Shown here piece after piece: positions 27,503 through 61,927 of a stretch of DNA of 64,000 nucleotides. Location: positions 1,900 through 65,899 of the forward strand of contig JAFLTY010000003.1 in NCBI GenBank assembly GCA_022509065.1, given 5' to 3'. The translations under genes and the position numbers were made by a program. The notes beneath the pieces are model-generated. The model had not been told where the DNA came from. It was given only the letters and a program-made list of their open reading frames with translations, and ran no database searches. Positions within the stretch are counted from its first letter, which is position 1. The number at the start of each line of letters is the position of its first letter. The DNA comes from Muribaculaceae bacterium (lineage in GTDB: Bacteria > Bacteroidota > Bacteroidia > Bacteroidales > Muribaculaceae).

Positions 27503-28801
27503 TTATTTGATAATTAATTTCTTTCCGTTTTGTATATATATACCGGGAGCAAGCCCTTTTGTGTCTGTGCTGATGTATCTTCCGTAAAGGTCATAAATCC
27601 GATTGTCGGCAAAGCTTTTCTCTTCGCTAACAGGGAAGAACACAAAGTTTTGACTATATGGCATTTCTACAGCGAGTCCATAGTCAATATGGCCACCTCC
27701 GGCACCTTGCATCAATGATACGGCAAGTATGTTATCGCCCTCGTGAAGCAACGCTTTCTGCTCAGCGTTGAAGTTAAGACGGGCGTAGTCGTTATCGTTC
27801 CAGCCGGAGGCACTCCATAGCTGCGTGCCGTTTAGATACATGACAGGGTTTTCGTCATAGCTGCATGTCATAACCACACGGGAGTCCTCGTTGTTAATAG
27901 CCGCCATGTCATCGGCTGTAAGCGTAAAATGCCGTCGGACAAGAATGGGTCGTACCTGGCTTGGCCATTCCGTGACAAGGAACATATTCCTGTCGTTACT
28001 GAACGGTCCCACACCTTCAATCCAGAAAGTCTCGTCCTCGTCGCTACCGAACCATTCGGCGCGCTCGGCAGGTTCGATGTCTGTGTTGTAGTTAAGTATA
28101 TAGTATTTGCAGGGCCATGAGCCATCGGCAACCGTGTGCAGCAAAGTCCTGGTGACGGTCACGTCGGCGCCGTAGAGTCCGCAGTCGGCGAAAGCGCCTC
28201 CCCAGTTCTGATGGACATGGACTGCAATTATATTTTCTCCTTGTTTTAACAATGCTTTCTTATCGTCAGAAAGAAGCACGTATTCGTCATTGTTCCAGCC
28301 GTCCGTGACGCTGTGAACCATTTCTCCGTTTATATACCATTCGGACGGCGCGTCATCGTGTCCGCATGCCAGATATACAGGGCTGTCAGGCACGTTATCG
28401 AGTGTGAAAGTGCGCCGCAAATAAATCTCACCGGTTATGTCCGATGTTATCCAACGATATGAAGTCTGGCCATTGTAAACGGCGTCCGAGCTGAACGGAG
28501 CCCGTTGGATGCTCCACCCTTCTTCACCGTTATATCCGGGCATGTACCATGCATTCCCCTCATCGTCGGCGCCCGGTGTCGCCCATATCCTGTTATAGTC
28601 GGCGTCTGCGTAACGTTTGCCTTCGTTAAACACCCATACATTCGCTTCATAAGGAAGTGCGGGCGTGTACTGAGATGAAGGTAGAATAATGTTGTTGGGA
28701 TTGAAAGTGCTTCGCAACTCGTCCGTTACAGCCATAGCGCTAAAAGATGTTGACACCATGACGAGAGCCACTAACATTCCGGGATATTTGTTTTGTAACA
28801 T
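27503..28801 (-). CDS. Paralog A: secreted protein made of two jelly-roll (galactose-binding-like) modules plus short T9SS-like tail
   Basis: Signal peptide. Module 1 ends AVHVHQNWGGAFADCGLYGAD and module 2 ends AVSLMQGAGGGHIDYGLAVEMP. The tail is NRIYDLYGRYIS...APGIYIQNGKKLIIK. It aligns with the N-terminal halves of paralogs B and C. Confidence 0.7.
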   Translation of the reverse strand: MLQNKYPGMLVALVMVSTSFSAMAVTDELRSTFNPNNIILPSSQYTPALPYEANVWVFNEGKRYADADYNRIWATPGADDEGNAWYMPGYNGEEGWSIQRAPFSSDAVYNGQTSYRWITSDITGEIYLRRTFTLDNVPDSPVYLACGHDDAPSEWYINGEMVHSVTDGWNNDEYVLLSDDKKALLKQGENIIAVHVHQNWGGAFADCGLYGADVTVTRTLLHTVADGSWPCKYYILNYNTDIEPAERAEWFGSDEDETFWIEGVGPFSNDRNMFLVTEWPSQVRPILVRRHFTLTADDMAAINNEDSRVVMTCSYDENPVMYLNGTQLWSASGWNDNDYARLNFNAEQKALLHEGDNILAVSLMQGAGGGHIDYGLAVEMPYSQNFVFFPVSEEKSFADNRIYDLYGRYISTDTKGLAPGIYIQNGKKLIIK

Positions 28802-28889: not shown

Positions 28890-31577
28890 TTAGCGAACAA
28901 TAAACTTCTTACCGTTGCGGATATAGAGGCCGGGAACATTGGCGTTCTTAACTTCGATACCCTGCAGGTTGAAGATGCGGTTGTCTTCTGTTTCGGGAGC
29001 TACCTTAACGTCTTCCACACCGTCAACTACGGGTTTGCCAAGGTAAGTCAGTTTGAAGTTGTCAACGACAACCCAGTCTTGTTCTGCGTCAGACTGATTT
29101 TTGTAAACACCTATTACGGCTTTTTCCTGGCCTTCTTCGACTGTGAAGGGAACTACTGTCTTGTAAAGACCGGCTTTAAAGTAGCTGGTTACTTGCATGC
29201 ATCCGTCGGGGAACTCTACTTGCTCGCCGTCCTCGGTAGTTGTCACGCGACCTTCACCGGGAGCCATATTGCTTTCGCTCAGGATGTTGGGAAGTTCAAC
29301 GTCTTCGCCATCTTCATCGCTTCCTGCCACTACATAAGCGTACTGGGCGCGGTCATTGTCCACTTGATAATCGAAGCTGCCATTACGATAGAAACCTTGT
29401 ACTGTGAGTACATAGTCGCCTTCGGGAAGGCCTTCGATGAACTGGTTTAAGGTCATATCACTCGTATTCCACGATTCGAGAACGAAGTCATAATGATTTC
29501 CACCTCTTTCCCAAACACTGGCGTTCTCGATTTCCCAAGCATCCATAGTTACGCGTTGGTTGAAGCCGGGATTGACGATAAAGAGCGATGCGTCAACAGG
29601 ATTTTCTTCGCTGGCTTCGTCAAGAAGGGCAAGACGTTCTTCGCGAGTAACGAGTTTCCACATTGCGTTTTCGTTGGCTTTGTCAAGGTTGCGCGATTCG
29701 GTGCATACGTTTGTTTCGTCGCTCTGACCGCCGTCAACGCTTCCGTAGGGATCCCACTGTATGTGTACGTCGGGATAATCGCTCTGTACGATAAAGTAAA
29801 TATTGTCACGACCTTCTACGGGGACAAACGCCCAACCGTCCTGACCTACTGTGTGGCCGGCATCCATATAGCCGCGATAGTTCAGATAATGGTTGTTTTC
29901 ACCGTTATAAAGACCTGTTTCGATAACGAACGAAGGAACTCCAGCTTTGCTGTCCTCGATTTTTTCCATGAGGGTAAGTTCGTCGCCATAGAAGCCGAGA
30001 GCTGCGTGAGCACCCCAGTCTGAACCGCCCTGGAGGAACTGTTTCTGACCTACGTTGTAAAGATAGAATTTGCCTTCGGCGGCTTCGTTGCCTTCAAATA
30101 CATCTTCGTGTTTGTCGGCGGCTGCACGACGGCGAGCGTAACGCAGCGTGCGCAGAGCGTTATTGTAATCATCGCGTGTCTTAGCGGCAGCGAACTGCTC
30201 GACAGCGGTAGCGTCACTGTAAATCTTAAGAGTTGCGTTGAAGTTATTGATAGCTTCCGAAGCGTCGCGTACAGCGGCTATAGCGCCCTGAAGAGCATCT
30301 ATGGCACTATCGAAATCTTTCACGTTTTCACCGGTGGCCAATACTGCTTCGGCTGTTTCTATTGCTTTTTCAACTTGAGGTGTCTGCAAAGCTTCACGGG
30401 CTTCTTCTATGAGCTGAGAGAGAAGAGCTTTATGCAGAGTAAGGTCTTCGGTGAAAGTGAAACCGTCGCAAGGCATTTCAACATAGAGACCGAAATCGAT
30501 GTGACCGCCGCCACTGCCTTGTTGAGCCGATACGCCAATCACGTTTTTACCTTCCACAAACAGAGCTATTTGGTCTGGGTTGAGTTCGTGAAGGGCATAA
30601 TTGGAGTCGTTCCAACCTTCGGCACTCCAAATTTCAGTTCCGTTCAGATAAACATGAGGGTATTCGTCATAGCTGCAAGTCAGATATACTTTGCCATGAT
30701 CTTTAAGAGCTTCAAGGCTTTCGTCTGTCAATGTGAAATAACGACGAACCAGTATGGGGTTAGCATCGCTGTTCCAATATGTTGTGCGGAATTCGTCATT
30801 ACTGTTGCTGTAGGGACCCGAAGCTATTGTCCAGTTCGAATCATCAGCATTGATAGCAAAGCAACCGTCGGCCACTGCACCGGCGATAGCATCGTTATTT
30901 TCAACGAGAGTATATTTGCTTACCCAGCTCTTACCTACTGAAACAGGAGCGTGGATGTATAGTTTTACGTCAGCGCCATAAAGACCGCAGTCGGCGTAAG
31001 CGCCACCCCAGTTCTGGTGTACGTGAACGGCCATAAGGTTTTCACCTACCTGCAGAGCAGCTTTTTCTTCGTCCGAAAGAAGTACAACGGCTCCTTCGTC
31101 CCATCCTTCAGTTTCGAAATGAACGAGTTTACCATTAATATACCATTCTGACGGGGCGTCGTCACGACCGCAAGCAAGATAAACGGGACCTTCAGGAATT
31201 TCATCGAGAGTGAAAGCGCGACGTATATAGATGTCACCCATAATTTCTCCGGCAATCCATTTGTCAGTGGTGAAAGGAGATTCCTTTACTTCCCAGTCGA
31301 TATCAGCGCTGTTTGTAAGAGTATATGCGTTTTCAAACCACTCGTTACCTTCAGCATCCGCTTCGGGAGTGCCCCAGATTTTGTTGTAATTAGGTTCGCT
31401 ATACCTTTCGCCGGTATTTACAATCCATACATCGGCTGTCCAGGGACTGTCCGGAGTGTGACGCGATGACGGTAGTATCACCTTGTTTGTGTTAATTGAC
31501 ACAACTGTTTCTCCGTTTGCGTAACCACTAATTATGGTAGCAACGGCAACGGAAAGGGTTAATAAAAATTTTTTCAT
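28890..31577 (-). CDS. Paralog B: two jelly-roll modules + helical linker + ~430-aa C-terminal beta-rich region + short T9SS-like tail
   Basis: The ATG at 31577 gives MKKFLLTLSVAVATIISGYA; the track start 31610 is a GTG. Blocks HVHQNWGGAYADCGLYGAD, GSGGGHIDFGLYVEMP, YLYNVGQKQFLQGGSDWGAHAALG and NAMWKLVTR are present. The tail is NRIFNLQGIEVKNANVPGLYIRNGKKFIVR. Confidence 0.7.
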   Translation of the reverse strand: MKKFLLTLSVAVATIISGYANGETVVSINTNKVILPSSRHTPDSPWTADVWIVNTGERYSEPNYNKIWGTPEADAEGNEWFENAYTLTNSADIDWEVKESPFTTDKWIAGEIMGDIYIRRAFTLDEIPEGPVYLACGRDDAPSEWYINGKLVHFETEGWDEGAVVLLSDEEKAALQVGENLMAVHVHQNWGGAYADCGLYGADVKLYIHAPVSVGKSWVSKYTLVENNDAIAGAVADGCFAINADDSNWTIASGPYSNSNDEFRTTYWNSDANPILVRRYFTLTDESLEALKDHGKVYLTCSYDEYPHVYLNGTEIWSAEGWNDSNYALHELNPDQIALFVEGKNVIGVSAQQGSGGGHIDFGLYVEMPCDGFTFTEDLTLHKALLSQLIEEAREALQTPQVEKAIETAEAVLATGENVKDFDSAIDALQGAIAAVRDASEAINNFNATLKIYSDATAVEQFAAAKTRDDYNNALRTLRYARRRAAADKHEDVFEGNEAAEGKFYLYNVGQKQFLQGGSDWGAHAALGFYGDELTLMEKIEDSKAGVPSFVIETGLYNGENNHYLNYRGYMDAGHTVGQDGWAFVPVEGRDNIYFIVQSDYPDVHIQWDPYGSVDGGQSDETNVCTESRNLDKANENAMWKLVTREERLALLDEASEENPVDASLFIVNPGFNQRVTMDAWEIENASVWERGGNHYDFVLESWNTSDMTLNQFIEGLPEGDYVLTVQGFYRNGSFDYQVDNDRAQYAYVVAGSDEDGEDVELPNILSESNMAPGEGRVTTTEDGEQVEFPDGCMQVTSYFKAGLYKTVVPFTVEEGQEKAVIGVYKNQSDAEQDWVVVDNFKLTYLGKPVVDGVEDVKVAPETEDNRIFNLQGIEVKNANVPGLYIRNGKKFIVR

Positions 31578-31636
31578 AAAATATTGATTTAAAAAGTTAA
31601 GTTGGTTCACGGTACAGATTGCTACTTTTAGCGCTA

Positions 31637-31929: not shown

Positions 31930-34749
31930 TTAACGGACAATGAACTTCTTACCGTTGCTGATGTAGATGCCGGGAGTGTTGGCATTTTTCACTTCCATAC
32001 CCTGGAGGTTGAAGATACGGTTGTCAGCGGGACGTGCCACGCTATCGAACATAACATCTTCGACACCTGCAAGGTAATCTTTAACAGCCTGTTTGGTTGT
32101 GTCCTTACCGTAATATTTCAGACGGAAGTTGTCGACTACAATCCAGTCACCGGGTTCGTCACCGGCTTCTTCTTTGTACACACCGACCGACATATCAACG
32201 CCATCACCTTGTTCCACTACGGTATAGGCCTTATAAAGACCGAGTTTGAAGTAATTGGTGGCCTGGTTGCAGTATTCGGGAATGTGCCAGTTCTTTGTGC
32301 CATCGGCATTGCTGTAGTCTGCACCTTCGCCGGGAGCTTTTCCGCTTTCCGAAAGGATGTTGGGAAGCTGGACGTCGTCCTCATAGTCATTGCCGGCGAA
32401 AAGCCATGCATTCTGTTTTTCGGGCAGGTTGGCCTGACCTAAGCATTCGTAACCGTCGATATTGTCATGATATTTGTGTGAACCGTTACGGTAAAAACCT
32501 GTAACACTTACTTCATAGATACCTTCGGGAAGACCTTCGACCATTGTTACGAGTTCCGAGCTTTCTTGGTTCCACGATTCAGCTGTGAAATCGGGATAGT
32601 TGCCGCCACGTCCCCAGAATGCGAAGTTAGTTACAGACCAATTGTCAATGGTTTCGCGCTGATTGAAGTTGGGGTTGACGATGTAGTACGAAAGGTCAAC
32701 GGGGTTTTCGAGCGATGCGGTGGCGATAAGAGCGTCGCGTTCGGCGCGTGTCACCAGTTTCCACATAGCGTCTTCGTTAGTGGGATCGAGATTGCGAGAC
32801 TCGGTGCAAACGTTTGTTTCGTCGTTGTTGCCACCGTCTACGCTTCCGAAGGGATTCCATTGAACGTGTACATCGGGATAGTCAGCCTGTACAATATAAT
32901 ATGTGTTAGTACGACCTTCAACGGGAAGGAATGCCCAACCACCGGCACCTGCGTCGTAACCGCTGTCCATATAACCGCGATAACCGAGGAAATGTTGTTC
33001 GGCGCCGTTATAGAGACCGGTTTCGATGACGTAAGCTTTTGTTCCGGCGTTAGTTTCGGCTATTTCGTCGATGAGGTTGATTTCGTTACCGATAATACCG
33101 AGAGCGGCGTGTGCGCCCCAGTCAGAACCGCCCTGAAGGAACTGTTTCTGACCTACGTTGTAAAGATAGTAAGCGCCTTCGGCGGGTTCAGCGCCTACAA
33201 ACACGTCTTCCTGAGTTTCGGCAACCGAACGACGGCGAGCGAAACGCAGAGTCTTGATAGCGTTTGCATAATCGTCGCGTGTTTGAGCAGCTTCGAATTT
33301 AGCTGTTGCTTCCGCATCGGTAAAGATGGACTGAGTGTCATAATAAGCCTGAATGTCGTTGCGTGCAGCACGGATAACGGCTATGGCGCTCTGTAGTTTA
33401 TCGATAGCTTCGAGAAGAGCTGTCGATGTGGGTGTGCCGGCGAGGATAGCTTCGGCATCTGCTATCTGAGTAGCAAAGTGAGGTGTCGTGGGAAGCGACT
33501 TAGCCTGGTCGATAAGTGCCTGCAGCTGTTCCTTGAGAGGTTCTGTACCGCCACTCATCTCAACATTGTCGCAATAAGATACTGAATAGAAACCGTAGTC
33601 AATGTGACCACCGCCACCACCGCGCTGTACTGATACTGCAAGAACGTTGTCACCTTCAACAAGAAGAGCGACCTGTTCGGGGGTCAGTTCGTATGTATCG
33701 TAGCGTGCATCGTTCCAACCGTCTGCGCTCCAGATAAGTTCGCCGTTGAGGTAAACTTTAGGATACTCGTCGTAGCTGCATGTCAGGAAAGCGTTGCTCA
33801 TAGCAGCGATTTCCGAAGCGGTAAGGGTGAAGTGACGACGAACGAGCAGGGCTGTACCCATATTCTCTTCACCAAGGTCAGTGTTACTGTTCCAATAGGT
33901 AACACGGAACTGGTCGTCGCTGTTACTGAACGAACCCTGACCTACTGTCCAGTCGGATTCGTCAGCGTCTTTGGCAAAAGCGCCGGCTTCGACTGCGGCA
34001 GCGATATCTTCGTTAGTGTCAATTAATTTATAAACACAGTCCCAAGCACCGTCAGCAACGGTATTGAGGTAGCTTGTCTTATAGTCGGCAGCGTACAGAC
34101 CGCAGTCGGCGAAAGCACCGCCCCAGTTCTGGTGCACATGCACGGCTAATACGTTTTCGCCCGGCTTAAGAAGAGCCTTCTGCGACTCTTCCAAAAGAAC
34201 ATATTCTCCGTTGTTCCAACCGTCGGCAACCATGTGTACAAGGACACCGTTGAGATAGTATTCAGCGGGAGCGTCATCGTGTCCGCAAGCAAGGTAAATG
34301 GGACCGTCGTGTACTGTGTTGAGAGTGAATGTGCGACGCATGTAGAAATCGCCCATGATGTCGCTGGTGATCCATTGGAATGATTTGTTGTCTTTATAAT
34401 ACTCGTCCGAGCTGAAAGGAGCGGTTTCGAGAGTCCATTCCGAACTTTCACCGTTAACAGGCGAGTAATTCACCGCATACCATGCGTTGCCGGCTGCGTC
34501 GTTGGCGGGCACGCCCCATACATGGTTGTAGTTTTCGTTTTCGTAACCTTGCGCACCTTCGTAACGTTGACCTGTGTTAACAACGTAGACAAGAGCCTGA
34601 TAGGGAAGGTTGGGTGTATACTCCGACGAAGGGAGTATAACATTGGCAGCATTCCACGTCGGTGTAACGTCACCTTCGGCATACGCTGCGACGGGAGCCA
34701 TCGCTATGGCGGCGACAGCAAACATCCCGGCTAAGTAAAATTTTTTCAT
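31930..34749 (-). CDS. Paralog C: same architecture as B (939 aa)
   Basis: Signal MKKFYLAGMFAVAAIAMAPVAAYA. Blocks HVHQNWGGAFADCGLYAAD, RGGGGGHIDYGFY, YLYNVGQKQFLQGGSDWGAHAALG and DAMWKLVTR are present. The tail is NRIFNLQGMEVKNANTPGIYISNGKKFIVR. Confidence 0.7.
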   Translation of the reverse strand: MKKFYLAGMFAVAAIAMAPVAAYAEGDVTPTWNAANVILPSSEYTPNLPYQALVYVVNTGQRYEGAQGYENENYNHVWGVPANDAAGNAWYAVNYSPVNGESSEWTLETAPFSSDEYYKDNKSFQWITSDIMGDFYMRRTFTLNTVHDGPIYLACGHDDAPAEYYLNGVLVHMVADGWNNGEYVLLEESQKALLKPGENVLAVHVHQNWGGAFADCGLYAADYKTSYLNTVADGAWDCVYKLIDTNEDIAAAVEAGAFAKDADESDWTVGQGSFSNSDDQFRVTYWNSNTDLGEENMGTALLVRRHFTLTASEIAAMSNAFLTCSYDEYPKVYLNGELIWSADGWNDARYDTYELTPEQVALLVEGDNVLAVSVQRGGGGGHIDYGFYSVSYCDNVEMSGGTEPLKEQLQALIDQAKSLPTTPHFATQIADAEAILAGTPTSTALLEAIDKLQSAIAVIRAARNDIQAYYDTQSIFTDAEATAKFEAAQTRDDYANAIKTLRFARRRSVAETQEDVFVGAEPAEGAYYLYNVGQKQFLQGGSDWGAHAALGIIGNEINLIDEIAETNAGTKAYVIETGLYNGAEQHFLGYRGYMDSGYDAGAGGWAFLPVEGRTNTYYIVQADYPDVHVQWNPFGSVDGGNNDETNVCTESRNLDPTNEDAMWKLVTRAERDALIATASLENPVDLSYYIVNPNFNQRETIDNWSVTNFAFWGRGGNYPDFTAESWNQESSELVTMVEGLPEGIYEVSVTGFYRNGSHKYHDNIDGYECLGQANLPEKQNAWLFAGNDYEDDVQLPNILSESGKAPGEGADYSNADGTKNWHIPEYCNQATNYFKLGLYKAYTVVEQGDGVDMSVGVYKEEAGDEPGDWIVVDNFRLKYYGKDTTKQAVKDYLAGVEDVMFDSVARPADNRIFNLQGMEVKNANTPGIYISNGKKFIVR

Positions 34750-34991: not shown

Positions 34992-35037
34992 CACAAGGAA
35001 AAATAACCAAATTCCACAAGGAAAAATAACCAAATTC
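34992..35037 (+). repeat. Perfect tandem duplication, 2 x 23 bp (CACAAGGAAAAATAACCAAATTC)
   Basis: Read directly: 34992-35014 is identical to 35015-35037. It starts 3 nt after the -7 box and ends 15 nt before the ATG. Confidence 0.95.
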
Positions 35038-35052
35038 AATACCGTAATAAAA

Positions 35053-38000
35053 ATGAAAAAAATCAGTCTGTACCTATCGGCACTATCGTTAATGGCCACG
35101 GCTTCCCTGCCCGCCACAGCTCAGACAGCAGCCGATTTCGTTCCCTACCGGCAAACCGACATTCGTATGCCGTCGGTTCCCCTGTTGGTGAACGACCCCT
35201 ATTTCTCTATCTGGTCTAACTATGACGCACTCAACGGCGGTCCCACACGCATGTGGTGCGAACATGAAAAAGCAATTGAAGGCATACTGCGCGTTGATGG
35301 CACAGCCTATCGCTTTATGGGCACAGGCATCAAAACGCTGTTGCGTCCCATCGCCGGTATGACTGTCGACGGCACCGACTGGTCGGGTAGAGTCAGCTAC
35401 AACAAACGCACTGACGCCCAATGGGCAACTCCCGGCTTTGACGACAGCAGTTGGGCTGTCGAGGAGGCCGCATGGGGAACACCCGGTGAATATCCCAATG
35501 TCAGAAACAAATGGACCGGCGACAACAAAGATATCTACGTGCGCCGTACCGTTACCCTCACTCCCGAGGACTTGGAGAAAGACCTGTGGGTAATGTACTC
35601 GCACGATGACGTTTTCGAACTCTACGTTAACGGCACACGCGTTGTATCGACAGGCGAGACATGGCGTCAAGGCGAGCAACACCGCCTCAGCGATGCCGAA
35701 AAAGCTCTTCTTAAACCCGGCGACAATATCATAGCAGGCTATTGCCACAATACAACCGGTGGCTCGTACATCGATTTCGGTCTGTATGAAAACACTCTGC
35801 CCGAGGGAGCCGATACCCAGATGGCTCAACAGAACTCGGTTTATGTCCTTGCCACAAGTTCCTACTACAACTTCACCTGTGGGCCTGTAAACCTCGACTT
35901 GGTGTTTACCGCCCCCATGCTGATTGACGATCTCGACCTTATCTCTACTCCCATCAACTTCATTTCCTATCAAGTGACAGCCAACGACGGTAAGGAACAT
36001 GACGTGCAGTTCTATCTGGGCACATCGGCACAGCTCACTGTCAACGAGATGAGCCAACCCACCATAACCACCACTGTCAAGGAAGGCGGAATAACATACG
36101 CCAAAGCTGGCTCCGAGGCTCAGAATATACTTGGACGCTCGGGCGATATGATTTCGATTGACTGGGGTTATCTCTACATACCAGCTATTAACGGCGAAGT
36201 CAGTGTGGCTCCTGTCGAGACATCCGAAGCTTACTTCATTAAAACAGGTAAACTTCCCGAAAATGTCAGCGGCGAAATACGCAGTACAAACCGCGCCAAC
36301 ATGCCTGTCATTAACTTCGTTAACGATATGGGTAAAATAAAAGAAGGCCGCTCATTTATGATGATAGGCTATGACGAAGTGTACGACATGCAGTATATGC
36401 ACAATAACTACAAGGCATACTACGCTCGTAACGGCAAAACAATATTTGACGCATTTAAAGAGTTCAACCGCGACTATTCCAGCCTGATGGAGCGTTGCCG
36501 CGCACTTGACAAAATGATATACGACGACGGCCTTGCGGCAGGCAATGTCAAATATGCCGAACAACTTTCGGGTTGCTACCGCCACGTCATGGCCGCTCAC
36601 AAACTCTTTGAGGACAACACAGGTAAAGCACTGTATTTCTCGAAAGAAAACAAGTCTAACGGTTGCGTTAACACCGTCGACCTTACATACCCCGAATCGC
36701 CTCTCTATCTCCTCTACAACCCCGAGTTGCAGAAAGGTATGATTCTTTCAATACTTGACTACGCATTGTCCGACGCACGCAAGGGTAAAAACTGCGCCGC
36801 CCATGACCTGGGACAATATCCTCTGGCAAACGGACAGGTGTACGGCGACACAATGCCTCTTGAAGAATCTGCAAACATTATCCTGTTGGCCGATGCTATT
36901 TGCCGTATCACCGGCGATGGTGAATGGCTAAAACCCTATCGCAACGTCCTGAAAACATGGGCCGACTACTGTTATGCAGAAGGCCAGAATCCCGGCAACC
37001 AGCTCTGTACAGACGACTTTAAGGGTCCAAGCGAACAAAACACTAACCTTTCCGTCAAGGCCATTATGGCAGTGGCCGCTTACTCAAACCTTATCCCTTA
37101 CATCGGAGCTAATGCGCGTGACATCGAGAAATATCAAAAATACGCACAGGATATGGCTCTTATTTGGGAAGGAACCGCACGCGACGGTGACCACTACCGC
37201 ATGGAATTCCACAAACCGGGCACATGGAGTCAGAAATACAACCTTGTATGGGACAAAATGTGGGGTCTCGAGCTTTTCCCACAGGAAGTACTCGACCGCG
37301 AAATCAAATTCTACCTCAACCATCAGCAGAAATACGGACTGCCCCTTGACAGCCGCGACTTCATGACAAAGAGCGACTGGATAATGTGGACTGCCTCAAT
37401 GGCTCCCGACACCGAAACATTCCTTAAATTCTCGGACAAACATTACGACTACATCAACGAAACCACCTCGCGAATACCGTTGAGCGACTTCTTCTGGGCT
37501 CACACCGGCGTATCGTGCAACTTTAGCGCACGTTCGGTCATTGGCGGTCTGTGGATGAAAGTCCTCATGGATAAATACGCCCCCGTTAAGGAAGCTACCG
37601 CTTGGTCGCCCAAAGGAAACCACATCAAAACACGTTGGGCAGAACAAGTCAATCCCGAGTGTCCTCTTCCTGAACATCCCAAACCTCTGATGGTACGCAA
37701 CGAATGGAAAAACCTCAACGGACTTTGGGAATATGCCATAGGCGAATCAAACGGCACAGCGCCGACAGTTTGGGAAGGCGAGATTCTCGTTCCCTACCCC
37801 ATAGAGTCAAGTCTGTCGGGCGTTATGCGTCCTCTCGAACCGGGCAAAGCGCTTTGGTATAAAAAAGACATAGTTGTTCCCGAGGAATGGGACGGCAAGA
37901 AAGTGCTTCTGAACTTCGGAGCTGTCGACTATCAGGCAACCGTGTATGCCAACGGAACAAGCGGGCGCAACCAGATTGGTTCGCATATCGGTGGCCATAC

Positions 38001-39567
38001 GGCATTTACTGTTGACCTCACCAATTATCTCACCGATGGTAAAGCGACAGTCTACGTCAAAGTTATCGACAACACTGACGAGGGCAGACAACCTGTAGGC
38101 AAGCAGCGTCGTTATCCCGCCGGAAACGGTGACATCAATTACACCTCGACTTCAGGCATCTGGCAGACCGTATGGTTGGAAGCCGTTCCCCAAGCCTACA
38201 TCACCGACATACGCACTACTCCCGACGTAGATAACAGCAACCTCACTTTCGATGTCGCTCTGAAAGGTACTATAGGCGGCGAAGTTGAAGTCAAGGTTCT
38301 TGACGGTAACACTGTTGTGGCACAGAAATCTGTACCTGCAGCCAACACCACGACATTAACCCTCGATATTCCCGACGCTAAGTTGTGGAGTCCGGCACAT
38401 CCCAACCTCTATAACGTGCAAGTGACTTACACCAACGGCGATAACATCGATAAGGTTGACAGCTATGCCGCTCTTCGCAAGATATCATACGCCAAAGACG
38501 ATAAAGGGTTCTGGCGCCTTCAACTTAACAATAAAGACCTTTTCCAATTCGGTCCTCTTGACCAAGGTTATTGGCCCGACGGCCTGTTGACAGCTCCTAC
38601 CGACGAAGCTCTTCGCTTTGATTTGGAAAAAACAAAAGACTGGGGCTTCAACATGGTTCGCAAACACATGAAAGTCGAACCGGCACGCTGGTATTGGCAC
38701 TGCGACAGCCTTGGATTACTGGTATGGCAGGATATGCCCTCGCAATTCACCACCGACGAAGGCGACTGGCACGTCTTTGACTGGTATCCCGAACATAACT
38801 GCTCGATAGACCCGACAATCGAGAAAAATTTCAAAAACGAATGGCAGGAAATCATCGAACAGCACTATTCTAACCCGTGTATTGTCGTTTGGACACCGTT
38901 TAACGAACGCTGGGGTCAGTTCAAGACAGCCGAGATAGTGGCTTTCACTCAACAACTCGATCCCACGCGCCTGGTTAACCCGGCCAGTGGCGGCAACCAC
39001 TACAAACTTGGCGAAGGTACATTTGTGGATCAACACACCTATGACCAACCGATAGTCGTTTACGAAGGAGTGTTCGACTATACACGCCCCTACGTGTTGG
39101 GCGAGTATGGAGGCCTTGGTCGCAACATATCCGGTCATCGCTGGTATGAAAAAGACTCGCAGACATACAACACCTACCCCAACGAAAAAGCCATCACGGA
39201 CGCCTACGTCACACTGGTGGGTCAAATACAGAACATCGCCAACGGATACGTTAACAACGGACGCCATATTTGCTATGGAGCCGCGGTTTACACACAGACC
39301 ACCGATGTCGAAACAGAAGTAAACGGCATCATGACATACGACCGCGAAGTCATTAAGTTTGATGAAGACCGTATACGCGCTGCCGCCCACGCGCTAACCT
39401 CGATGTTTGGAAATGAAGACTCGGGCGTGGCTGTAGTCCCTTTCGTTGACGGCACCGGTGAACCTATCTATTATGATGTAATGGGGATTCGTCATAATGC
39501 GCCGGTGCCCGGAATCAATATAATTCTAAACCCCGACGGTTCAGCTTCTAAACAGCTGATTAAATAA
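35053..39567 (+). CDS. 1504-aa chimeric secreted enzyme: glutaminase-A-like (DUF4964/DUF5127/DUF4965/DUF1793-type) module with inserted jelly-roll, fused to a complete GH2 module, plus T9SS-like tail
   Basis: The N-terminus PSVPLLVNDPYFSIWS...LRVDGTAYRFMG is glutaminase-like. The insert WATPGFDDSSW...IYVRRTV...LSDAEKALLKPGDNIIAGYCHNTTGGSYIDFGLY aligns with paralogs A-C. The (alpha/alpha)6-type part reads VDLTYPESPLYLLYNP...AHDLGQYP...EESANIILLA. From about nt 37600 the GH2 blocks are NFGAVDYQATVYANG, GIWQTVWLE, WTPFNERWGQF and VLGEYGG. Confidence 0.7.
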   Translation: MKKISLYLSALSLMATASLPATAQTAADFVPYRQTDIRMPSVPLLVNDPYFSIWSNYDALNGGPTRMWCEHEKAIEGILRVDGTAYRFMGTGIKTLLRPIAGMTVDGTDWSGRVSYNKRTDAQWATPGFDDSSWAVEEAAWGTPGEYPNVRNKWTGDNKDIYVRRTVTLTPEDLEKDLWVMYSHDDVFELYVNGTRVVSTGETWRQGEQHRLSDAEKALLKPGDNIIAGYCHNTTGGSYIDFGLYENTLPEGADTQMAQQNSVYVLATSSYYNFTCGPVNLDLVFTAPMLIDDLDLISTPINFISYQVTANDGKEHDVQFYLGTSAQLTVNEMSQPTITTTVKEGGITYAKAGSEAQNILGRSGDMISIDWGYLYIPAINGEVSVAPVETSEAYFIKTGKLPENVSGEIRSTNRANMPVINFVNDMGKIKEGRSFMMIGYDEVYDMQYMHNNYKAYYARNGKTIFDAFKEFNRDYSSLMERCRALDKMIYDDGLAAGNVKYAEQLSGCYRHVMAAHKLFEDNTGKALYFSKENKSNGCVNTVDLTYPESPLYLLYNPELQKGMILSILDYALSDARKGKNCAAHDLGQYPLANGQVYGDTMPLEESANIILLADAICRITGDGEWLKPYRNVLKTWADYCYAEGQNPGNQLCTDDFKGPSEQNTNLSVKAIMAVAAYSNLIPYIGANARDIEKYQKYAQDMALIWEGTARDGDHYRMEFHKPGTWSQKYNLVWDKMWGLELFPQEVLDREIKFYLNHQQKYGLPLDSRDFMTKSDWIMWTASMAPDTETFLKFSDKHYDYINETTSRIPLSDFFWAHTGVSCNFSARSVIGGLWMKVLMDKYAPVKEATAWSPKGNHIKTRWAEQVNPECPLPEHPKPLMVRNEWKNLNGLWEYAIGESNGTAPTVWEGEILVPYPIESSLSGVMRPLEPGKALWYKKDIVVPEEWDGKKVLLNFGAVDYQATVYANGTSGRNQIGSHIGGHTAFTVDLTNYLTDGKATVYVKVIDNTDEGRQPVGKQRRYPAGNGDINYTSTSGIWQTVWLEAVPQAYITDIRTTPDVDNSNLTFDVALKGTIGGEVEVKVLDGNTVVAQKSVPAANTTTLTLDIPDAKLWSPAHPNLYNVQVTYTNGDNIDKVDSYAALRKISYAKDDKGFWRLQLNNKDLFQFGPLDQGYWPDGLLTAPTDEALRFDLEKTKDWGFNMVRKHMKVEPARWYWHCDSLGLLVWQDMPSQFTTDEGDWHVFDWYPEHNCSIDPTIEKNFKNEWQEIIEQHYSNPCIVVWTPFNERWGQFKTAEIVAFTQQLDPTRLVNPASGGNHYKLGEGTFVDQHTYDQPIVVYEGVFDYTRPYVLGEYGGLGRNISGHRWYEKDSQTYNTYPNEKAITDAYVTLVGQIQNIANGYVNNGRHICYGAAVYTQTTDVETEVNGIMTYDREVIKFDEDRIRAAAHALTSMFGNEDSGVAVVPFVDGTGEPIYYDVMGIRHNAPVPGINIILNPDGSASKQLIK

Positions 39568-39673: not shown

Positions 39674-40645
39674 ATGAGAACTTCAATAAGCTTATTTTCC
39701 ATCATATCAGCAGTTTTTCTGACATTAAACGCAGGCAATCCGGTCTTCGAGGGTTGGTATGCCGACCCCGAAGCTGTAATTTACGATGATACTTACTGGA
39801 TATACCCGACTTATAGTCAGCCCTATGAAAAACAAGTGAAGATGGATGCCTTCTCGTCGAAAGATCTTCTTCACTGGACACGTCACGAAAACATTATTGA
39901 CACAACAGCTGTCCAATGGGCCGAAAAATGCCTGTGGGCACCGGCTGCTTTGCGTCATAACGGCAAATATTATCTCTTTTTTTCGGCCAACGATGTTCAT
40001 CCCGGAGAGACAGGTGGTATAGGAGTCGCTATTGCAGACAGTCCCGAAGGCCCTTACCGCGACGCCCTGGGTAAACCCCTTATTAACGACAATGTGAATG
40101 GTGCTCAACCTATTGACCAATTTGTTTTTGTAGACGAGGATGGCTCAATATATATGTATTACGGCGGCTGGGGACATTGCAACGTCGTAAAACTCACTGA
40201 CACCCTGACCGAACTGAAGCCGTTCGAGGACGGTACATTTTTCAAAGAAATCACTCCCGAAAAATATGTTGAAGGTCCGTTCATGTTTAAACGTGGAGGC
40301 AAATATTATTTTATGTGGAGTCAAGGAGGTTGGACAGGTCCCGACTATTGCGTGGCGTATGCAGTGGCCGACAACCCTTTGGGTCCCTTTGACTCACGTG
40401 GAGAAATTCTCAAACGAGATGAGATGATAGGCACAGGCGCCGGTCACCATTCCGTCATTCATATACCGGGAACAGATGACTATTATATAGTCTACCACCG
40501 TCACCCGCTCGGAGCCGATGACGGCAATAATCGCGTTACATGTATCGACCGCATGTATTTTGATACCGAGGGAAACATACTCCCCGTCAAAATGACATTC
40601 GACGGCGTCGAACCGCGCACTCTATCAGATTTAGAAAAAAATTAA
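39674..40645 (+). CDS. GH43 family glycosidase (arabinofuranosidase/xylosidase/galactofuranosidase-type fold)
   Basis: NPVFEGWYADPEAVIYDDTYWIYPT, LWAPAALRHNGKYYLFFS and EGPFMFKRGGKYYFMWS are classic GH43 blocks containing the catalytic Asp and Glu. It has a signal peptide. Confidence 0.85.
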   Translation: MRTSISLFSIISAVFLTLNAGNPVFEGWYADPEAVIYDDTYWIYPTYSQPYEKQVKMDAFSSKDLLHWTRHENIIDTTAVQWAEKCLWAPAALRHNGKYYLFFSANDVHPGETGGIGVAIADSPEGPYRDALGKPLINDNVNGAQPIDQFVFVDEDGSIYMYYGGWGHCNVVKLTDTLTELKPFEDGTFFKEITPEKYVEGPFMFKRGGKYYFMWSQGGWTGPDYCVAYAVADNPLGPFDSRGEILKRDEMIGTGAGHHSVIHIPGTDDYYIVYHRHPLGADDGNNRVTCIDRMYFDTEGNILPVKMTFDGVEPRTLSDLEKN

Positions 40646-43683: not shown

Positions 43684-45498
43684 ATGATTTATTCTAAAAT
43701 TAGACTCGCTGTTGTTGCCATACTTTCTACACTTGTATTGACCGACGCGTATGCCGGTGATAAAATACAAAGTCGATGGGCTGATGAAATCGACACCGCT
43801 CAACCTTGGAACGTTTACCCACGCCCCATGCTCGAGCGCGATAATTGGAAAAATCTAAACGGCTACTGGCAATACGCTATAGTTCCCCAAAAAGCGGGTC
43901 TTCCCACCGAGTGGCAAGGAGATATTCTGGTTCCTTATGCTGTGGAGTCCAGTCTATCGGGGGTTGAGCGCAGAGTTCGTGACAACGAAGCATTGTGGTA
44001 TAACCGCACTTTCACCGTCCCATCTTCATGGAAAGGCCAGGACATCATGCTCAATTTCGGAGCTGTCGATTGGTCATGCGAGGTCTGGGTAAATGACATT
44101 AAGGTTGGCTCACATAAAGGTGGTTACACTCCTTTCAGTCTTAACATAACCCCGGCTCTCAATAACAAAGGCGAAAACACCCTTACAGTGCGTGTTACCG
44201 ATCCGACCGACCATGGCTATCAACCCCGAGGCAAACAAGTCAATCGACCCGGAGGAATATGGTACACTCCTGTGACGGGCATTTGGCAGACTGTCTGGAT
44301 GGAACCGGTCAATAAAAATCATATCGCCTCTATCAAAACAACCCCCGATATCGACCGAAATGTAGTCAAGGTAGAGGTAAATCCTGTCGGAGGTGAAAAC
44401 AACATAGCTCAAATCGCAATTATTGACAACGGACAAACGATTGCAAGCGGCAAAACTGTGGCTGGTGAACCAGTGGAAATCCACATGCCTGAAAACGCAC
44501 ATTTATGGTCGCCGGATTCTCCTTATCTTTACGACATGGAGATAGTTTTGCTCGAGAACGGCAAAGTTGTCGACAAAGTGAACTCCTACACCGCCTTGAG
44601 AAAGTTTTCGACTGCTCGCGATGACAAGGGGATTGTGCGCTTACAGCTCAATAATAAGAACCTTTTCCAGTACGGTCCTCTTGACCAGGGATGGTGGCCT
44701 GACGGCCTTTATACGGCTCCCACATACGAAGCTATGATCTATGACATAGATAAGACCAAAGACTGGGGTTTCAATATGATTCGCAAGCACGTAAAAGTTG
44801 AACCGGAACTTTGGTACGCGTATTGCGACCGAAAAGGCATTCTCGTGTGGCAGGATATGCCAAACGGTGACAACAGCCCCGAATGGCAGGCTCATCAGTT
44901 CTTCAATGGGGCTGAAAAACAACGGTCGGCAGAAAGCGAAGCCAATTACCGCCGCGAATGGAAAGAAATAATAGACGCAAACTACAACCATCCCTGTATA
45001 GCCACATGGATTCCCTTCAACGAAGCGTGGGGACAATTCAAAGGTCCCGAAATAGCTGAATGGACCAAATCATACGATCCTTCCCGTCTTGTCAACCAGT
45101 CAAGCGGTGGCAACCACTATCACGTAGGCGATATGATAGACACGCACCATTATCCCGCACCCAATGTATCCGTTATCGATGGTGCACGAGCCAATGTACT
45201 TGGTGAATTCGGCGGAATAGGTATGGTAGCTGAAGGACATCTTTGGGCTCCTGACCGCAACTGGGGTTATGTCCAGTTCAACACGCCTAAACAGGTAACC
45301 GACGAATACGAAAAATACATTCGCAAACTTATCGATTTGGCCAAATCCACCTACTCCGCCGCTGTTTATACTCAGACAACAGATGTGGAGGTTGAAGTTA
45401 ACGGTCTTATGACTTACGATCGCGAAGTCATTAAAATTGATGAGGATAGAGTGCGTGCAATAAATCAGGAATTGTGCAATTCGCTAAACGTAGACTAA
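43684..45498 (+). CDS. GH2 family glycosidase (stand-alone paralog of the C-terminal half of the 1504-aa protein)
   Basis: NFGAVDWSCEVWVNDIKVGSHKGGYTPF, GIWQTVWMEP, WIPFNEAWGQF (acid/base NE) and VLGEFGG (nucleophile Glu). It is colinear with residues ~865-1440 of the 35053..39567 product. Confidence 0.8.
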   Translation: MIYSKIRLAVVAILSTLVLTDAYAGDKIQSRWADEIDTAQPWNVYPRPMLERDNWKNLNGYWQYAIVPQKAGLPTEWQGDILVPYAVESSLSGVERRVRDNEALWYNRTFTVPSSWKGQDIMLNFGAVDWSCEVWVNDIKVGSHKGGYTPFSLNITPALNNKGENTLTVRVTDPTDHGYQPRGKQVNRPGGIWYTPVTGIWQTVWMEPVNKNHIASIKTTPDIDRNVVKVEVNPVGGENNIAQIAIIDNGQTIASGKTVAGEPVEIHMPENAHLWSPDSPYLYDMEIVLLENGKVVDKVNSYTALRKFSTARDDKGIVRLQLNNKNLFQYGPLDQGWWPDGLYTAPTYEAMIYDIDKTKDWGFNMIRKHVKVEPELWYAYCDRKGILVWQDMPNGDNSPEWQAHQFFNGAEKQRSAESEANYRREWKEIIDANYNHPCIATWIPFNEAWGQFKGPEIAEWTKSYDPSRLVNQSSGGNHYHVGDMIDTHHYPAPNVSVIDGARANVLGEFGGIGMVAEGHLWAPDRNWGYVQFNTPKQVTDEYEKYIRKLIDLAKSTYSAAVYTQTTDVEVEVNGLMTYDREVIKIDEDRVRAINQELCNSLNVD

Positions 45499-49175: not shown

Positions 49176-50117
49176 ATGCTGAAACGCCTCTTTCTCGTCA
49201 TCTTCATATTATTCCTTTCGTCATTTAGCAGCTGGTCTGTCGAGAAGCCCGCGATATTCAATGTGGCCACATACAATCTTCGACAACTCAATGCTGACGA
49301 CGACTCCCACGGTGACGGGTGGTCGAACCGGTGCCCGGTAATAGCAAAGATCATACAGTTCTATGATTTCGATATTTTTGGCACTCAGGAGGGGTTCAAG
49401 TCTCAGTTGGAAAATCTTAAAGACAGTCTTCCATTTTATGACTATATCGGAGTGGGTAGAGAAGACGGTAAAGAGCAAGGCGAACACTCGGCAATTTTCT
49501 ATAACACAAAGAAGTTCGAGCTGCTCGATAAAGGCGATTTCTGGTTATCTGAAAATCCAGACCGTCCCGGACTCGGATGGGATGCCGCTTGCACACGCAT
49601 CTGTTCTTGGGGTCATTTTCGTCATAAAGAAACAGGCAAAGAATTTAGATTTTTCAACCTGCATCTCGATCACGTAGGTGTCCGCGCACGTATTGAGAGC
49701 GTATTGCTTGTCCAACAAAAAATAAGAGAGTTCGGAATCGATAAACCGACATTTTTAACAGGCGACTTTAATGTGGACCAACATAACGAAATGTATTCTG
49801 TCCTTACTTCATCCGACTTCCTTGATGATTCATTTCATACAGCCGAACTGGTGTTTGCCTTGAATGGCACTTTCAACGGATGGCAAACCGAAGGCTTCAC
49901 GGACAGTCGAATTGACCATATTTTTGTCACTAAGGACATTGCGGTTGAAAAATACGGAATTTTGACCGACACTTATCGCACCAAACTTCTTGAAAATGAG
50001 ACTTCCGATAGTTCAACAGTGCCCCACGCCGACAAGCCGGATGAAATAAATGTTGTGAAATATAGGGCACGAATGCCTTCGGACCATTTCCCTGTGCTAA
50101 TAAAAGTGGAACTTTAA
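49176..50117 (+). CDS. Endonuclease/exonuclease/phosphatase (EEP) family secreted phosphoesterase
   Basis: FNVATYNLR near the N-terminus, ...FNLHLDH..., and C-terminal PSDHFPV are EEP catalytic blocks. It has a signal peptide and starts 4 nt after the GH36 stop. Confidence 0.8.
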   Translation: MLKRLFLVIFILFLSSFSSWSVEKPAIFNVATYNLRQLNADDDSHGDGWSNRCPVIAKIIQFYDFDIFGTQEGFKSQLENLKDSLPFYDYIGVGREDGKEQGEHSAIFYNTKKFELLDKGDFWLSENPDRPGLGWDAACTRICSWGHFRHKETGKEFRFFNLHLDHVGVRARIESVLLVQQKIREFGIDKPTFLTGDFNVDQHNEMYSVLTSSDFLDDSFHTAELVFALNGTFNGWQTEGFTDSRIDHIFVTKDIAVEKYGILTDTYRTKLLENETSDSSTVPHADKPDEINVVKYRARMPSDHFPVLIKVEL

Positions 50118-50150
50118 GCCACAACTTGCTTAGCCAATCAACATTGTCCT

Positions 50151-51794: not shown

Positions 51795-51850
51795 ATGTTT
51801 TTATTTAAATTTGCAACTATAAATCAATCAATAACCCTAATCTCAAAGTT

Positions 51851-52990: not shown

Positions 52991-53001
52991 TAATCTGTGA
53001 T

Positions 53002-54956: not shown

Positions 54957-54985
54957 CATAACCAATAAATTAACCATACCAAATC

Positions 54986-58398: not shown

Positions 58399-59063
58399 AT
58401 TATTTAAAAAACTCGTTGGTTGAATTAATTCGTTAAAAAATTATTGGGAAACGATAACCAACCCCTTATATGGAGTCGGAAAACTAACCGGTTGGCACTG
58501 TCAGAGCAAGAGGCGGTTCAACATTTCCTCACAAATGTCGTGAGAATTTGATAAATCTGCAAGTAATAGTAACACTAAAATCGGAATAAATGTCCTCCGA
58601 GGAGGCTATATGTATCAATTTTTATCATCCTTTCGTCCGTAAAAACTAAGGCTCTAATGCATTTCGTATAATAAAATGGTACTTTCGTATATCATGGCAA
58701 AAAATACTTGGGGAATATATCCATATTTTCTTCCTTTGCTCAACAATAGGCAATTTCGGTTTGGTCATGCCTATTGTTCTGCATATGTAGTAATAAAACG
58801 ACAGGAGTTAAACTCAATAGATGCTAATATTCGATTTTATTGATAGAATAATATAATGATATCAAAACCTTTAACGTTAAAGGATTTGGAGAATTGTCGG
58901 GAATCCCTGAACCTCAAATGCATCAGTTCCGGTAAATCACATGAGTGGAGTGTAGATAAATATTAGTACATTTTATGATCGCCGTTTCTAAGACAATATA
59001 CTTTAAATCAAACCGTTTTCTTATTAATATGTTTTAGCTTTTAATAAAATCTAATTTATTATT

Positions 59064-60509: not shown

Positions 60510-60762
60510 AATAAATTTTAGCAAAAATACTCATTTCTCGAATCTCCATCGAAAAAGATTTTAAATCATTCAAATCTTATGCCGTTCATTTGGATGATTT
60601 TCTTTTTATGAGATTAAACTTTTTCATCAAGAATCCGTTACGGTAATCTTTTGCTTATAAATAGAGTTATCTAAATTGTGAAAAATATATAAATTCTTTT
60701 TCTTGTGTAATTTTTATAAAAGTTGTGCAACATATGAGATAAAGAAACTAAAAATTAAAATA

Positions 60763-61251: not shown

Positions 61252-61252
61252 T

Positions 61253-61804: not shown

Positions 61805-61835
61805 GTTTTCTATATAGTCAATTAGACGTGTTTAG

Positions 61836-61861
61836 ATGTGCCGGGTATTTTCTTGGCACAT
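61836..61861. terminator. Weak stem-loop between convergent genes
   Basis: ATGTGCC pairs with GGCACAT across a 12-nt loop. Confidence 0.3.
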
Positions 61862-61927
61862 TTAACATGTTGTTACAATCCGGAAAGCTCAATTGATTTA
61901 GATTCAACCTTTTCGACGAACCGTCTG

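Follow-up and report, generated by a model that had tools for sequence, protein, structure and literature searches.

Galactofuranose (Galf) is absent from mammals and is a signature of Aspergillus, other fungi, mycobacteria, and some parasites; to our knowledge, only a few enzymes that remove it have been described. The yeast alpha-mannan polysaccharide utilization loci (PULs) of Bacteroides thetaiotaomicron, reportedly the subject of work by Cuskin and colleagues in 2015, are said to carry glycoside hydrolase (GH) families GH76, GH92, and GH125 and an EEP-type phosphatase. Here, we analyzed a 64,000-nucleotide (nt) stretch of a Muribaculaceae bacterium (GenBank assembly GCA_022509065.1, contig JAFLTY010000003.1, positions 1,900 to 65,899 of the forward strand; hereafter, the window), in which one gene at 35053–39567 on the plus strand fuses a GtaA-like hydrolase to a module of GH2 subfamily 18 (GH2_18). 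We consider it probable, though well short of certain, that its product is a secreted enzyme with two catalytic parts that belongs to a PUL for fungal-type galactomannan, that is, alpha-mannan with beta-galactofuranose side chains.

Both halves of the protein have described relatives. ORF1110 of Streptomyces sp. JHA19 uses E464 as the acid/base and E530 as the nucleophile and hydrolyses Aspergillus fumigatus galactomannan (PMC11627007). In this enzyme, Galf is contacted by N463 at O2, by H401 and K212 at O3, by Y551 and E594 at O5, and by K212, Y228, and E594 at O6; D157, D201, and Q213 form a Mg site, and the O5/O6 network discriminates Galf from arabinofuranose (Araf) (PMC11627007). BACCELL_01794 of Bacteroides cellulosilyticus (PDB 7SF2) is an uncharacterised structure. 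In the GtaA family, a fungal member was labelled by a retaining beta-glucosidase activity-based probe, and a Streptomyces member showed weak activity on para-nitrophenyl beta-galactoside (pNP-beta-Gal) and no glutaminase activity (PMC9668830).

Domain architecture of the fusion protein

The open reading frame (ORF) at 35053–39567 (+) starts with ATG and runs uninterrupted for 1504 amino acids (aa), according to the ORF list and its translation, and the fusion is borne out by its Pfam architecture and full-length homologues. Its layout is a signal peptide, DUF4964, a 173-aa jelly roll, DUF5127, a GtaA six-hairpin domain, an 8-aa linker, GH2, and a short tail. The signal peptide (35053–35121, +), read from the sequence as MKKISLYLSALSLMATASLPATA followed by QT, is of the signal peptidase I (SPI) type and lacks a lipobox cysteine; its cleavage site is putative, and the predicted local distance difference test (pLDDT) value is below 50 for aa 1–21 of the structure model. 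DUF4964 (aa 18–94; 35104–35334, +; PF16334, E 2e-25) forms the first part of an N-terminal beta-sandwich, and DUF5127 (aa 268–492; 35854–36528, +; PF17168, E 1e-54) forms the rest of it. The GtaA six-hairpin (alpha/alpha)6 domain follows at aa 500–836 (36550–37560, +; PF16335, E 4e-116). With bit scores of 88.7, 186.1, and 388.5 against gathering cut-offs of 30.7, 28, and 24.9, respectively, the three domains stand in canonical order, and Pfam thus confirms the block order that an earlier sequence-only reading of this DNA had proposed; the sequence strings quoted in that reading were all found in the translation. The inserted jelly roll (aa 95–267; 35335–35853, +) resembles domain 1 of GH2 enzymes in Foldseek matches of its AlphaFold2 (AF2) model, and this segment had no Pfam match.

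The linker APVKEATA (about aa 843–850; 37579–37602, +) lies between the catalytic halves and was placed by alignment to 7SF2 and 9J6N. The GH2 alignment to these structures begins at aa 850–851, which is equivalent to the mature start of the free enzymes, and pLDDT is below 50 for aa 849–860 of the linker region in the model. The GH2_18 module is complete (aa 851–1445; 37603–39387, +; PDB sequence matches) and consists of a jelly roll, an Ig-like domain, and a TIM barrel, with the Pfam GH2 domains PF02837 (aa 886–1009), PF00703 (Ig; aa 1048–1142), and PF02836 (TIM; aa 1185–1432) in this order. An NCBIfam scan of the protein matched the GH2 half alone, far below the cut-offs of the named equivalogs. 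The C-terminal tail (aa 1446–1504 and the stop; 39388–39567, +) ends in a sorting-like motif, IYYDVMGIRHNAPVPGINIILNPDGSASKQLIK, that was identified by motif comparison.

The protein had been described from its sequence as a three-part chimera. The genuine fusion of two catalytic-looking modules stands, and the jelly roll is instead an old, clade-wide insertion; what remains is a fusion of two parts, a standard Bacteroidota GtaA-like protein and a GH2_18 module. Multi-catalytic PUL enzymes are common, and this fusion is ordinary in kind; its GH2 half adds a member to a known subfamily.

The GH2 half as a predicted exo-beta-D-galactofuranosidase

The best PDB sequence matches of the fused GH2 were 7SF2 (E 5e-176), 9J6N/9J6M (E 5e-142), and 7XYR (E 2e-83), and ordinary glucuronidases matched it at E values of about 1e-22. 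The structures 9J6M (GH2_18) and 7XYR (GH2_19) belong together to the furanose-specific group III of GH2 (PMC12243196). Over about 600 aa, the fused GH2 is 43% identical to ORF1110 and 49% identical to BACCELL_01794 (7SF2). The acid/base motif WTPFNERW contains N1284-E1285 (38902–38907, +; codons AAC GAA), which aligns with N463-E464 of ORF1110, and the nucleophile motif VLGEYGG contains E1351 (39103–39105, +; codon GAG), which aligns with E530. The complete GH2 with an NE acid/base and an E nucleophile claimed earlier is therefore present, with no loss of catalytic residues on alignment.

All eleven ORF1110 positions compared (K212, Y228, H401, N463, E464, E530, Y551, E594, D157, D201, and Q213) are identical in the fused GH2 and likewise in the free 604-aa GH2 encoded downstream. 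Among 119 fusion homologues, ten of the eleven positions are kept in 112–119 sequences, and Y551 is kept in 110. Because every active-site position of ORF1110 is identical in them, both GH2 proteins are predicted to be exo-beta-D-galactofuranosidases. For the fused half, the prediction of a retaining GH2_18 exo-beta-D-galactofuranosidase with E1285 as the acid/base and E1351 as the nucleophile is well supported.

The free GH2_18 paralogue (43684–45498, +; Pfam and alignment) has an SPI signal and no tail, and its catalytic residues are N447-E448 and E508. It is colinear with the fused GH2, as had been noted when it was called a stand-alone twin, and it shares 63% identity with 7SF2. Its identity to the fused GH2 is only 47% over 602 aa, which makes it an old paralogue and not a recent twin. 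The ORF of the following GH125 gene begins with a GTG at 45474 and shares 25 nt (45474–45498) with the end of the free GH2 gene, pointing either to translational coupling or to a true start further downstream.

Conservation of the fusion

Searching 5.8 billion proteins, we obtained at least 120 protein clusters that share the full-length architecture of the fusion, at 53–78% identity and approximately 100% coverage, drawn from ENA, Logan, JGI, and NCBI assemblies. Eight clusters of approximately 2000 aa add an N-terminal GH76 domain. Few fusion clusters carry a name, one example being "glutaminase domain-containing protein [Prevotella sp.]". We also collected 79 GtaA-like loci from one-genome-per-species GTDB contigs, each recruited by a GtaA-specific peptide, and an uninterrupted fused ORF was present in eight of them, two with GH76 in front; fused, adjacent, and separate genes were all seen among the 79 loci.

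These data bear on whether the junction near nt 37600 could be an assembly or frameshift artefact that merges two genes, a possibility raised in the sequence-only reading. In its favor, some genomes keep the GtaA-like and GH2 genes separate and adjacent, and in the close relative L002 the GtaA-like part ends at a true stop. However, the same uninterrupted junction recurs in the independent clusters and in the eight species-level genomes, the signal peptide of the fused GH2 is replaced by the 8-aa linker, and base composition is even across the fusion gene. Because so many independent full-length homologues exist, we reject the artefact, which is effectively refuted already. The fusion is widely conserved, is present in public databases under DUF or "glutaminase" names, and is no one-off. 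A plasmid or mobile origin was not indicated by megablast, which gave no match in PLSDB.

A perfect 23-nt tandem duplication, CACAAGGAAAAATAACCAAATTC, lies in two copies at 34992–35037, 16 nt upstream of the ATG at 35053, and is probably located in the 5′ untranslated region of the fusion gene. It is found just downstream of TAATTTTG, a match to the Bacteroidetes −7 promoter box (TAnnTTTG). Scans for sigma-70 promoters and for terminators remained at background level.

Genomic coupling of GtaA-like proteins and GH2_18

Besides the eight fused cases, GH2_18 is the immediate same-strand neighbour of the GtaA-like gene in seven of the 79 loci, with gaps of 1–323 nt, and lies within 10 kb in four more. 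Among the adjacent cases, the GH2 gene comes first in Bacteroides, Pedobacter steynii, and Sphingobacterium zeae, and the GtaA-like gene comes first in Tannerella and Paludibacter. The scan had included the GH2-derived pattern DQGYWPDG, which might have inflated the adjacency count; this was excluded, and the counts are not biased toward GH2, because the GtaA-specific pattern is likewise present in each of the 79 loci. A rough neighbour-joining tree scattered the adjacent cases over distant clades and placed the fused members in two gut-Bacteroidales subclades, mixed with unfused members.

Other fusions involve the same family. P0147 is an independent fusion with the order reversed: GH2_18 precedes a GtaA-like protein that lacks the insert. 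GtaA-like proteins are also joined to GH43 in P0346 (whose GH43 is 58% identical to the GH43 encoded at 39674–40645 in the window), to GH76 in P0140 (GH76-GtaA-GH2 chains also occur), to a GH27 alpha-galactosidase in P0144, and to PI-PLC-X in P0254. Within 10 kb of the 79 GtaA-like genes, GH76, GH92, or GH125 were found in 27 loci, GH2_18-like genes in 20, GH43 in 23, and GH127 in 18. By gene neighbourhood, the GtaA-like family is tied to PULs for fungal mannan at large and more specifically to furanosidase families. The independent fusions in both orders and the adjacency in distant taxa lend strong support to the proposal that both halves work on a single glycan motif, and on genomic evidence only, the two halves are coupled.

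A GtaA-like gene that is prevalent in the human gut, BACINT_01208 (a cluster of 1222 members; Bacteroides intestinalis-type contigs L080–L083, 10001–12517), closes a GH76-GH125-GtaA operon. This operon adjoins GH38, GH97, GH76, and a hybrid two-component system (HTCS) regulator, and it contains no GH2.

The N-terminal GtaA-like half

No PDB sequence relative of the N-terminal half was found with either the single sequence or a 44-member family profile. Its AlphaFold2 model (32 homologues; pLDDT 82.5, predicted template modeling score 0.84) is rich in beta-structure towards the N-terminus and has about twelve helices at aa 464–842. The top Foldseek match of the model was the TxGH116 beta-glucosidase (E 4e-15, template modeling (TM) score 0.51–0.57), followed by TeGH116, the GH116 exo-beta-D-arabinanase ExoMA2, and GH52 xylosidases, with GH63, GH94, and GH65 more remote. 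The GH116 and GH52 matches ranged from E 4e-15 to 5e-10, at a probability of 1.00 and TM scores of 0.46–0.60. HHpred similarity of the GtaA family to the GH116/GH52 fold has been reported and agrees with these matches (PMC9668830). At the sequence level, neither a PDB sequence or profile match nor a Pfam GH116 or GH52 match placed the N-terminal half in these families. We therefore treat it as a member of the GtaA-like Pfam family that, judging from the model, may at most work like clan GH-O enzymes.

Conservation was assessed over 148 GtaA-family representatives clustered at 50% identity. Carboxylates conserved in at least 90% of them are D312, D365, and D441 in the sandwich and E532, D543, E604, E605, D654, D655, E750, D766, D775, and D812 in the barrel, all of which are present here. 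A direct codon check showed 13 of the 16 family-wide carboxylate positions to be acidic; D486, D585, and D734 aligned as D. Going by spacing only, we guess that E604/E605 with D766/D775 are the candidate catalytic residues. The N-terminal half may be a second glycosidase that acts on the same side chains as the GH2, as we infer from the fold and the gene context.

The jelly-roll insertion and its paralogues

The insert at aa 95–267 aligned by BLAST with a tandem pair of modules in each of three ORFs upstream (29–38% identity, E 3e-17 to 3e-7), which confirms the alignment with paralogue modules that the sequence-only reading had seen. Modelled alone with AF2, the insert gave a beta-sandwich with a pLDDT of 93.8, and its best Foldseek match was 6sd0 (E 3e-7, TM 0.57). 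The best matches (E 3e-7 to 5e-5, TMq 0.47–0.58) were to domain 1, the "sugar-binding" jelly roll, of beta-galactosidases of the LacZ type and of beta-glucuronidases from the gut. The model thus points to a galactose-binding-domain-like jelly roll of the GH2 domain 1 type, with putative carbohydrate binding. A homologue search with the insert alone returned only short N-terminal fragments of the same family and was uninformative.

In a tblastn comparison, the insert was found between DUF4964 and DUF5127 in 78 of the 79 Bacteroidota loci, with or without GH2, and only L048 lacked it. Its bearers include Prevotella, Muribaculaceae, Bacteroides, Dysgonomonas, Pedobacter, Sphingobacterium, and Chitinophagaceae, and two rumen loci carry two copies in tandem (L024, 1954–2835; L025, 10319–11233). 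It was absent from about 120 of the 148 wider-family representatives; those without it are mostly 650–700 aa long. Because nearly all Bacteroidota relatives carry it, the insert is an old clade-specific feature that was not acquired from the neighbouring paralogues, and its distribution indicates that it is ancestral to the Bacteroidota clade of roughly 830-aa proteins.

DUF4965 genes are enriched as inversion targets (PMC9881135), and this prompted the idea that the insert was recently copied from, or shuffled with, the paralogues by programmed inversion. The idea was rejected: only a 21-nt inverted repeat (I3) was found, DNA identity between the insert and the paralogues was otherwise undetectable beyond 21 nt, their protein identity is just 29–38%, and the insert is ancestral.

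The three paralogues lie in tandem on the minus strand, encode two insert-type modules and the same tail each (BLAST and motif), and are 939 aa (31930–34749), 906 aa (28890–31610), and 432 aa (27503–28801) long. The 939-aa gene is divergent from the fusion gene, and divergent pairing of a p906/p939-like gene with the fusion gene also occurs in L001, L003, L006, and L033. Their modules gave weak Pfam matches to Glyco_hydro_2_N, Glyco_hydro_2_N2, and BetaGal_ABD2, beyond which no Pfam, NCBIfam, or PDB sequence family matched the three proteins. They are secreted and may bind glycans at the surface, or else constitute a new enzyme family.

The C-terminal tail and localization

About 60 aa follow the TIM barrel, and the last approximately 35 of them carry the motif I-Y-Y-D-x-M-G-...-P-G-I-N-I-...-K-x-x-I-K. 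As a regular expression, this motif matched the fusion protein and the three paralogues only, among all six-frame ORFs of at least 150 aa in the 64-kb window, and it is conserved in the fusion homologues. The tail resembles what we take to be the last strands of type-A sorting domains of the type IX secretion system (T9SS), presumably at about half their length. T9SS sorting-domain hidden Markov models (HMMs; TIGR04183 and PF18962) gave no match at E ≤ 10 for the tails of the fusion protein, the three paralogues, and the GH76 protein of the locus, and whole-protein Pfam scans found no T9SS domain in the fusion protein or the paralogues. Of the T9SS-like tail proposed in the sequence-only reading, the shared, conserved C-terminal motif holds, but its resemblance to T9SS domains is at the level of the motif and is missed by the HMMs. 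Because T9SS models do not recognize the tail, surface export of the fusion protein is a guess. The free GH2 has the SPI signal without a tail, and a split in which the fused protein is at the surface and the free GH2 is periplasmic is plausible from these signals.

The GH76 protein (9996–11561, −) combines two different sorting signals, a lipobox-like cysteine (…LWSSC, Cys16) and a diverged tail motif (…EEVYSLTGRHIGTLKNVRDSLPKDVYIVGHSKVVLGK).

Gene content of the locus

Upstream of the fusion gene, the minus strand encodes GH3, a GDSL esterase, acyltransferase_3, aldose epimerase, a BNR protein, GH76, a DUF4973 protein, SusD, SusC, a TIG-domain protein, an HTCS regulator, GH127, and the three jelly-roll paralogues; an upstream GH43 lies on the plus strand. 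The plus strand continues from the fusion gene with GH43, GH92, a GDSL esterase, the free GH2_18, GH125, GH36, an EEP phosphatase, and GH32, and then with galactokinase, aldose 1-epimerase, a nucleotidyltransferase, and a major facilitator superfamily transporter. The GH43 gene directly downstream of the fusion gene (39674–40645, +; Pfam) is the one whose orthologue is fused to a GtaA-like protein in P0346; against the PDB, it matched generic xylosidase and arabinofuranosidase relatives only, with no subfamily call. The other fused loci share HTCS, the divergent p906/p939-like gene, GH92, GH125, GH43, GH127, GH76, and SusC/SusD. Because an alpha-mannan enzyme set is combined here with two predicted galactofuranosidases, GH36, and galK/galM, the locus points to a galactose- or Galf-decorated fungal mannan.

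Two features at the side of this gene set are worth recording. The GH32 gene, with DUF4980, lies inside the plus-strand string at 49176–56335 and belongs to a fructan-type family, which is unexpected in a mannan/Galf locus. The region at 58001–62000 has a GC content of 0.33–0.36, compared with 0.44–0.51 elsewhere, and holds a DUF4932 gene (59064–60509); it may be a foreign insert at the PUL edge.

Proposed role of the fusion protein

Under the explanation that we favor, the fusion protein would be exported to the cell surface or the medium, where it would strip Galf side chains from the polymer. The GH2 half would remove terminal beta-Galf, and the GtaA-like half, as a retaining glycosidase, would cleave a side-chain linkage or stub that the GH2 cannot. 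This debranching would let GH76, GH92, and GH125 attack the mannan core; the exposed mannan would be cut by GH76 and imported through SusC/SusD, and GH92, GH125, and the free GH2_18, the latter in the periplasm, would finish the imported oligosaccharides. The released galactose could then enter the galK/galM route of the same operon.

Several observations weigh against this scheme, and they are best considered together with the other explanations. The GH116 nucleophile/acid-base pair could not be mapped onto the N-terminal half, whose presumed competence rests on conservation; in the literature searched, no enzyme activity of any Bacteroidota GtaA-like member was found, and the tail is not recognized by T9SS models. 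Moreover, 42 of the 79 loci have neither GH2_18 nor GH76/92/125 within 10 kb, and the GtaA-like gene of Bacteroides intestinalis lies in an alpha-mannan PUL without GH2; because of these loci, the GtaA-like link is perhaps to fungal mannan generally and not to Galf. The founding fungal members of the family were purified, from Aspergillus and Cryptococcus, as glutaminases and gave it its name (cited in PMC9668830), and public annotation labels these proteins accordingly, so that the N-terminal half might be a true glutaminase or amidase acting on the peptide material of fungal cell-wall glycoproteins, with the GH2 fusion being incidental. This is very unlikely in our judgment, since the bacterial member described above was glutaminase-negative and glycosidase-positive and the fungal member bound a glycosidase probe (PMC9668830), the fold has its matches in GH116 and GH52, the genes are located within PULs, and the fusion partners (GH2_18, GH43, GH76, and GH27) are all glycoside hydrolases bar the one PI-PLC-X. 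We find it similarly improbable that the N-terminal half is catalytically dead and serves as a carbohydrate-binding or scaffold module that places the GH2 on the polymer. The extra jelly roll, a type that binds sugar in some enzymes, and the unassigned catalytic residues would fit such a role, but the family-wide carboxylates are kept, the identity of the barrel is high across the fusion homologues, and the majority of relatives, at about 830 aa, stand alone and would be purposeless as a mere appendage.

The target could also be another furanoside glycan, such as a bacterial Galf polysaccharide or lipopolysaccharide (LPS), a mycobacterial-type galactan, or plant L-arabinofuranosides. Gut Bacteroides galactofuranosidases act on mycobacterial galactan, and Galf is found in bacterial LPS (PMC10115798); GH2_18 also holds alpha-L-arabinofuranosidases (PMC12243196), and the locus contains GH127 and two GH43 genes. 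We nevertheless regard such a target as unlikely, given that GH76, GH92, GH125, and the EEP phosphatase, a set that marks alpha-mannan PULs, turn up repeatedly alongside the fusion, with GH76 even joined to GtaA and GH2 in one polypeptide, that the O5/O6-binding residues that separate Galf from Araf are conserved, and that the operon has galactose catabolism genes. A somewhat better candidate, though still a doubtful one, is that the N-terminal half is a GH182 exo-beta-D-galactofuranosidase, which would make the protein a double galactofuranosidase with two linkage preferences (for example, beta-1,5 versus beta-1,6 or a Galf-Man stub); this would be a sharper form of the galactomannan explanation and does not contradict it. 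GH182 is listed among the galactofuranosidase families (PMC11627007), and its founding member BACFIN_04787, from a PUL of Bacteroides finegoldii, was reported as a "previously unidentified exo-Galf family" by Al-Jourani et al. 2023 (PMC10115798), having been reached from Galf-induced PULs of the species that encodes BACCELL_01794. The GtaA-like family is the unclassified family that we found most tightly linked to GH2_18 in Bacteroides-type PULs, and BACCELL_01794 is 72% identical to the GH2 partner genes beside the GtaA-like genes in L027 and L042. On the other side, the domain make-up of BACFIN_04787 is not stated in the text of PMC10115798, its preprint, or its supplements, no BACFIN-tagged member was present among the inspected clusters, and no NCBIfam galactofuranosidase model matches aa 1–850; in addition, Pfam in 2025 names the domain "Glutaminase A six helical-hairpin" and NCBI uses "glutaminase domain-containing".

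We tentatively suggest that the GtaA-like family may consist of retaining glycosidases with a GH116-like fold, and that its Bacteroidota branch may act on Galf or other fungal-mannan decorations; we do not yet count this as the likelier outcome. The family counts thousands of members among bacteria and fungi, and almost everywhere it is labelled "glutaminase". If the suggestion is true, the GtaA-GH2_18 fusion, together with the GH43, GH76, and GH27 fusions, would be a Rosetta stone that names the substrate of the family. If the family is GH182, the N-terminal half is already a known kind of galactofuranosidase; if it is not, the family stays an orphan with a strong pointer to its function and would be a candidate new CAZy family. 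One chain joins a predicted galactofuranosidase to a member of this very large family, which is a pointer to testing the function of that family on Galf-bearing glycans. The PUL type occurs in Muribaculaceae and Prevotella-like gut and rumen bacteria, probably gives them access to mould cell walls as food, and reaches beyond the yeast-mannan PULs. None of this amounts to a categorically new kind of system, and public databases hold the sequences already.

Comparison with known systems

The fused GH2 shares with ORF1110 and BACCELL_01794 the three-domain GH2 build, the catalytic pair, the Galf-binding residues, and the Mg site. ORF1110 is a stand-alone secreted enzyme with a C-terminal AbfB/CBM42-like domain, whereas the fused GH2 is preceded by an 850-aa GtaA-like hydrolase, no longer has a signal peptide of its own, and terminates in a different kind of short tail.

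For the N-terminal half, the likeness to the GtaA family (Aspergillus oryzae GtaA, Phanerochaete Phchr2|3002168, and Streptomyces misionensis WP_074995790) lies in the Pfam domain order and the conserved carboxylates; these proteins differ in that they are about 690–750 aa long, lack the jelly-roll insertion and the GH2 fusion, and are encoded outside PULs. GH116 and GH52 enzymes have the same overall N-terminal beta-sandwich and (alpha/alpha)6 barrel, but share 11–13% identity with it in structural alignments and lack the inserted jelly roll. GH182, as represented by BACFIN_04787, is likened here by description: it is a PUL-encoded Bacteroides enzyme that acts on Galf polymers and had no CAZy family before 2023, and its activity on Galf is the one inferred for the GH2_18 partner.

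At the level of the whole locus, the B. thetaiotaomicron yeast-mannan PULs have the same core enzyme set, SusC/SusD, and HTCS. The Muribaculaceae locus differs from them by adding two GH2_18 modules, the GtaA-like hydrolase, GH43, GH127, GH36, the jelly-roll proteins, and galK/galM, and by encoding several enzymes with a C-terminal tail that is not known from the lipoprotein-type enzymes of B. thetaiotaomicron.

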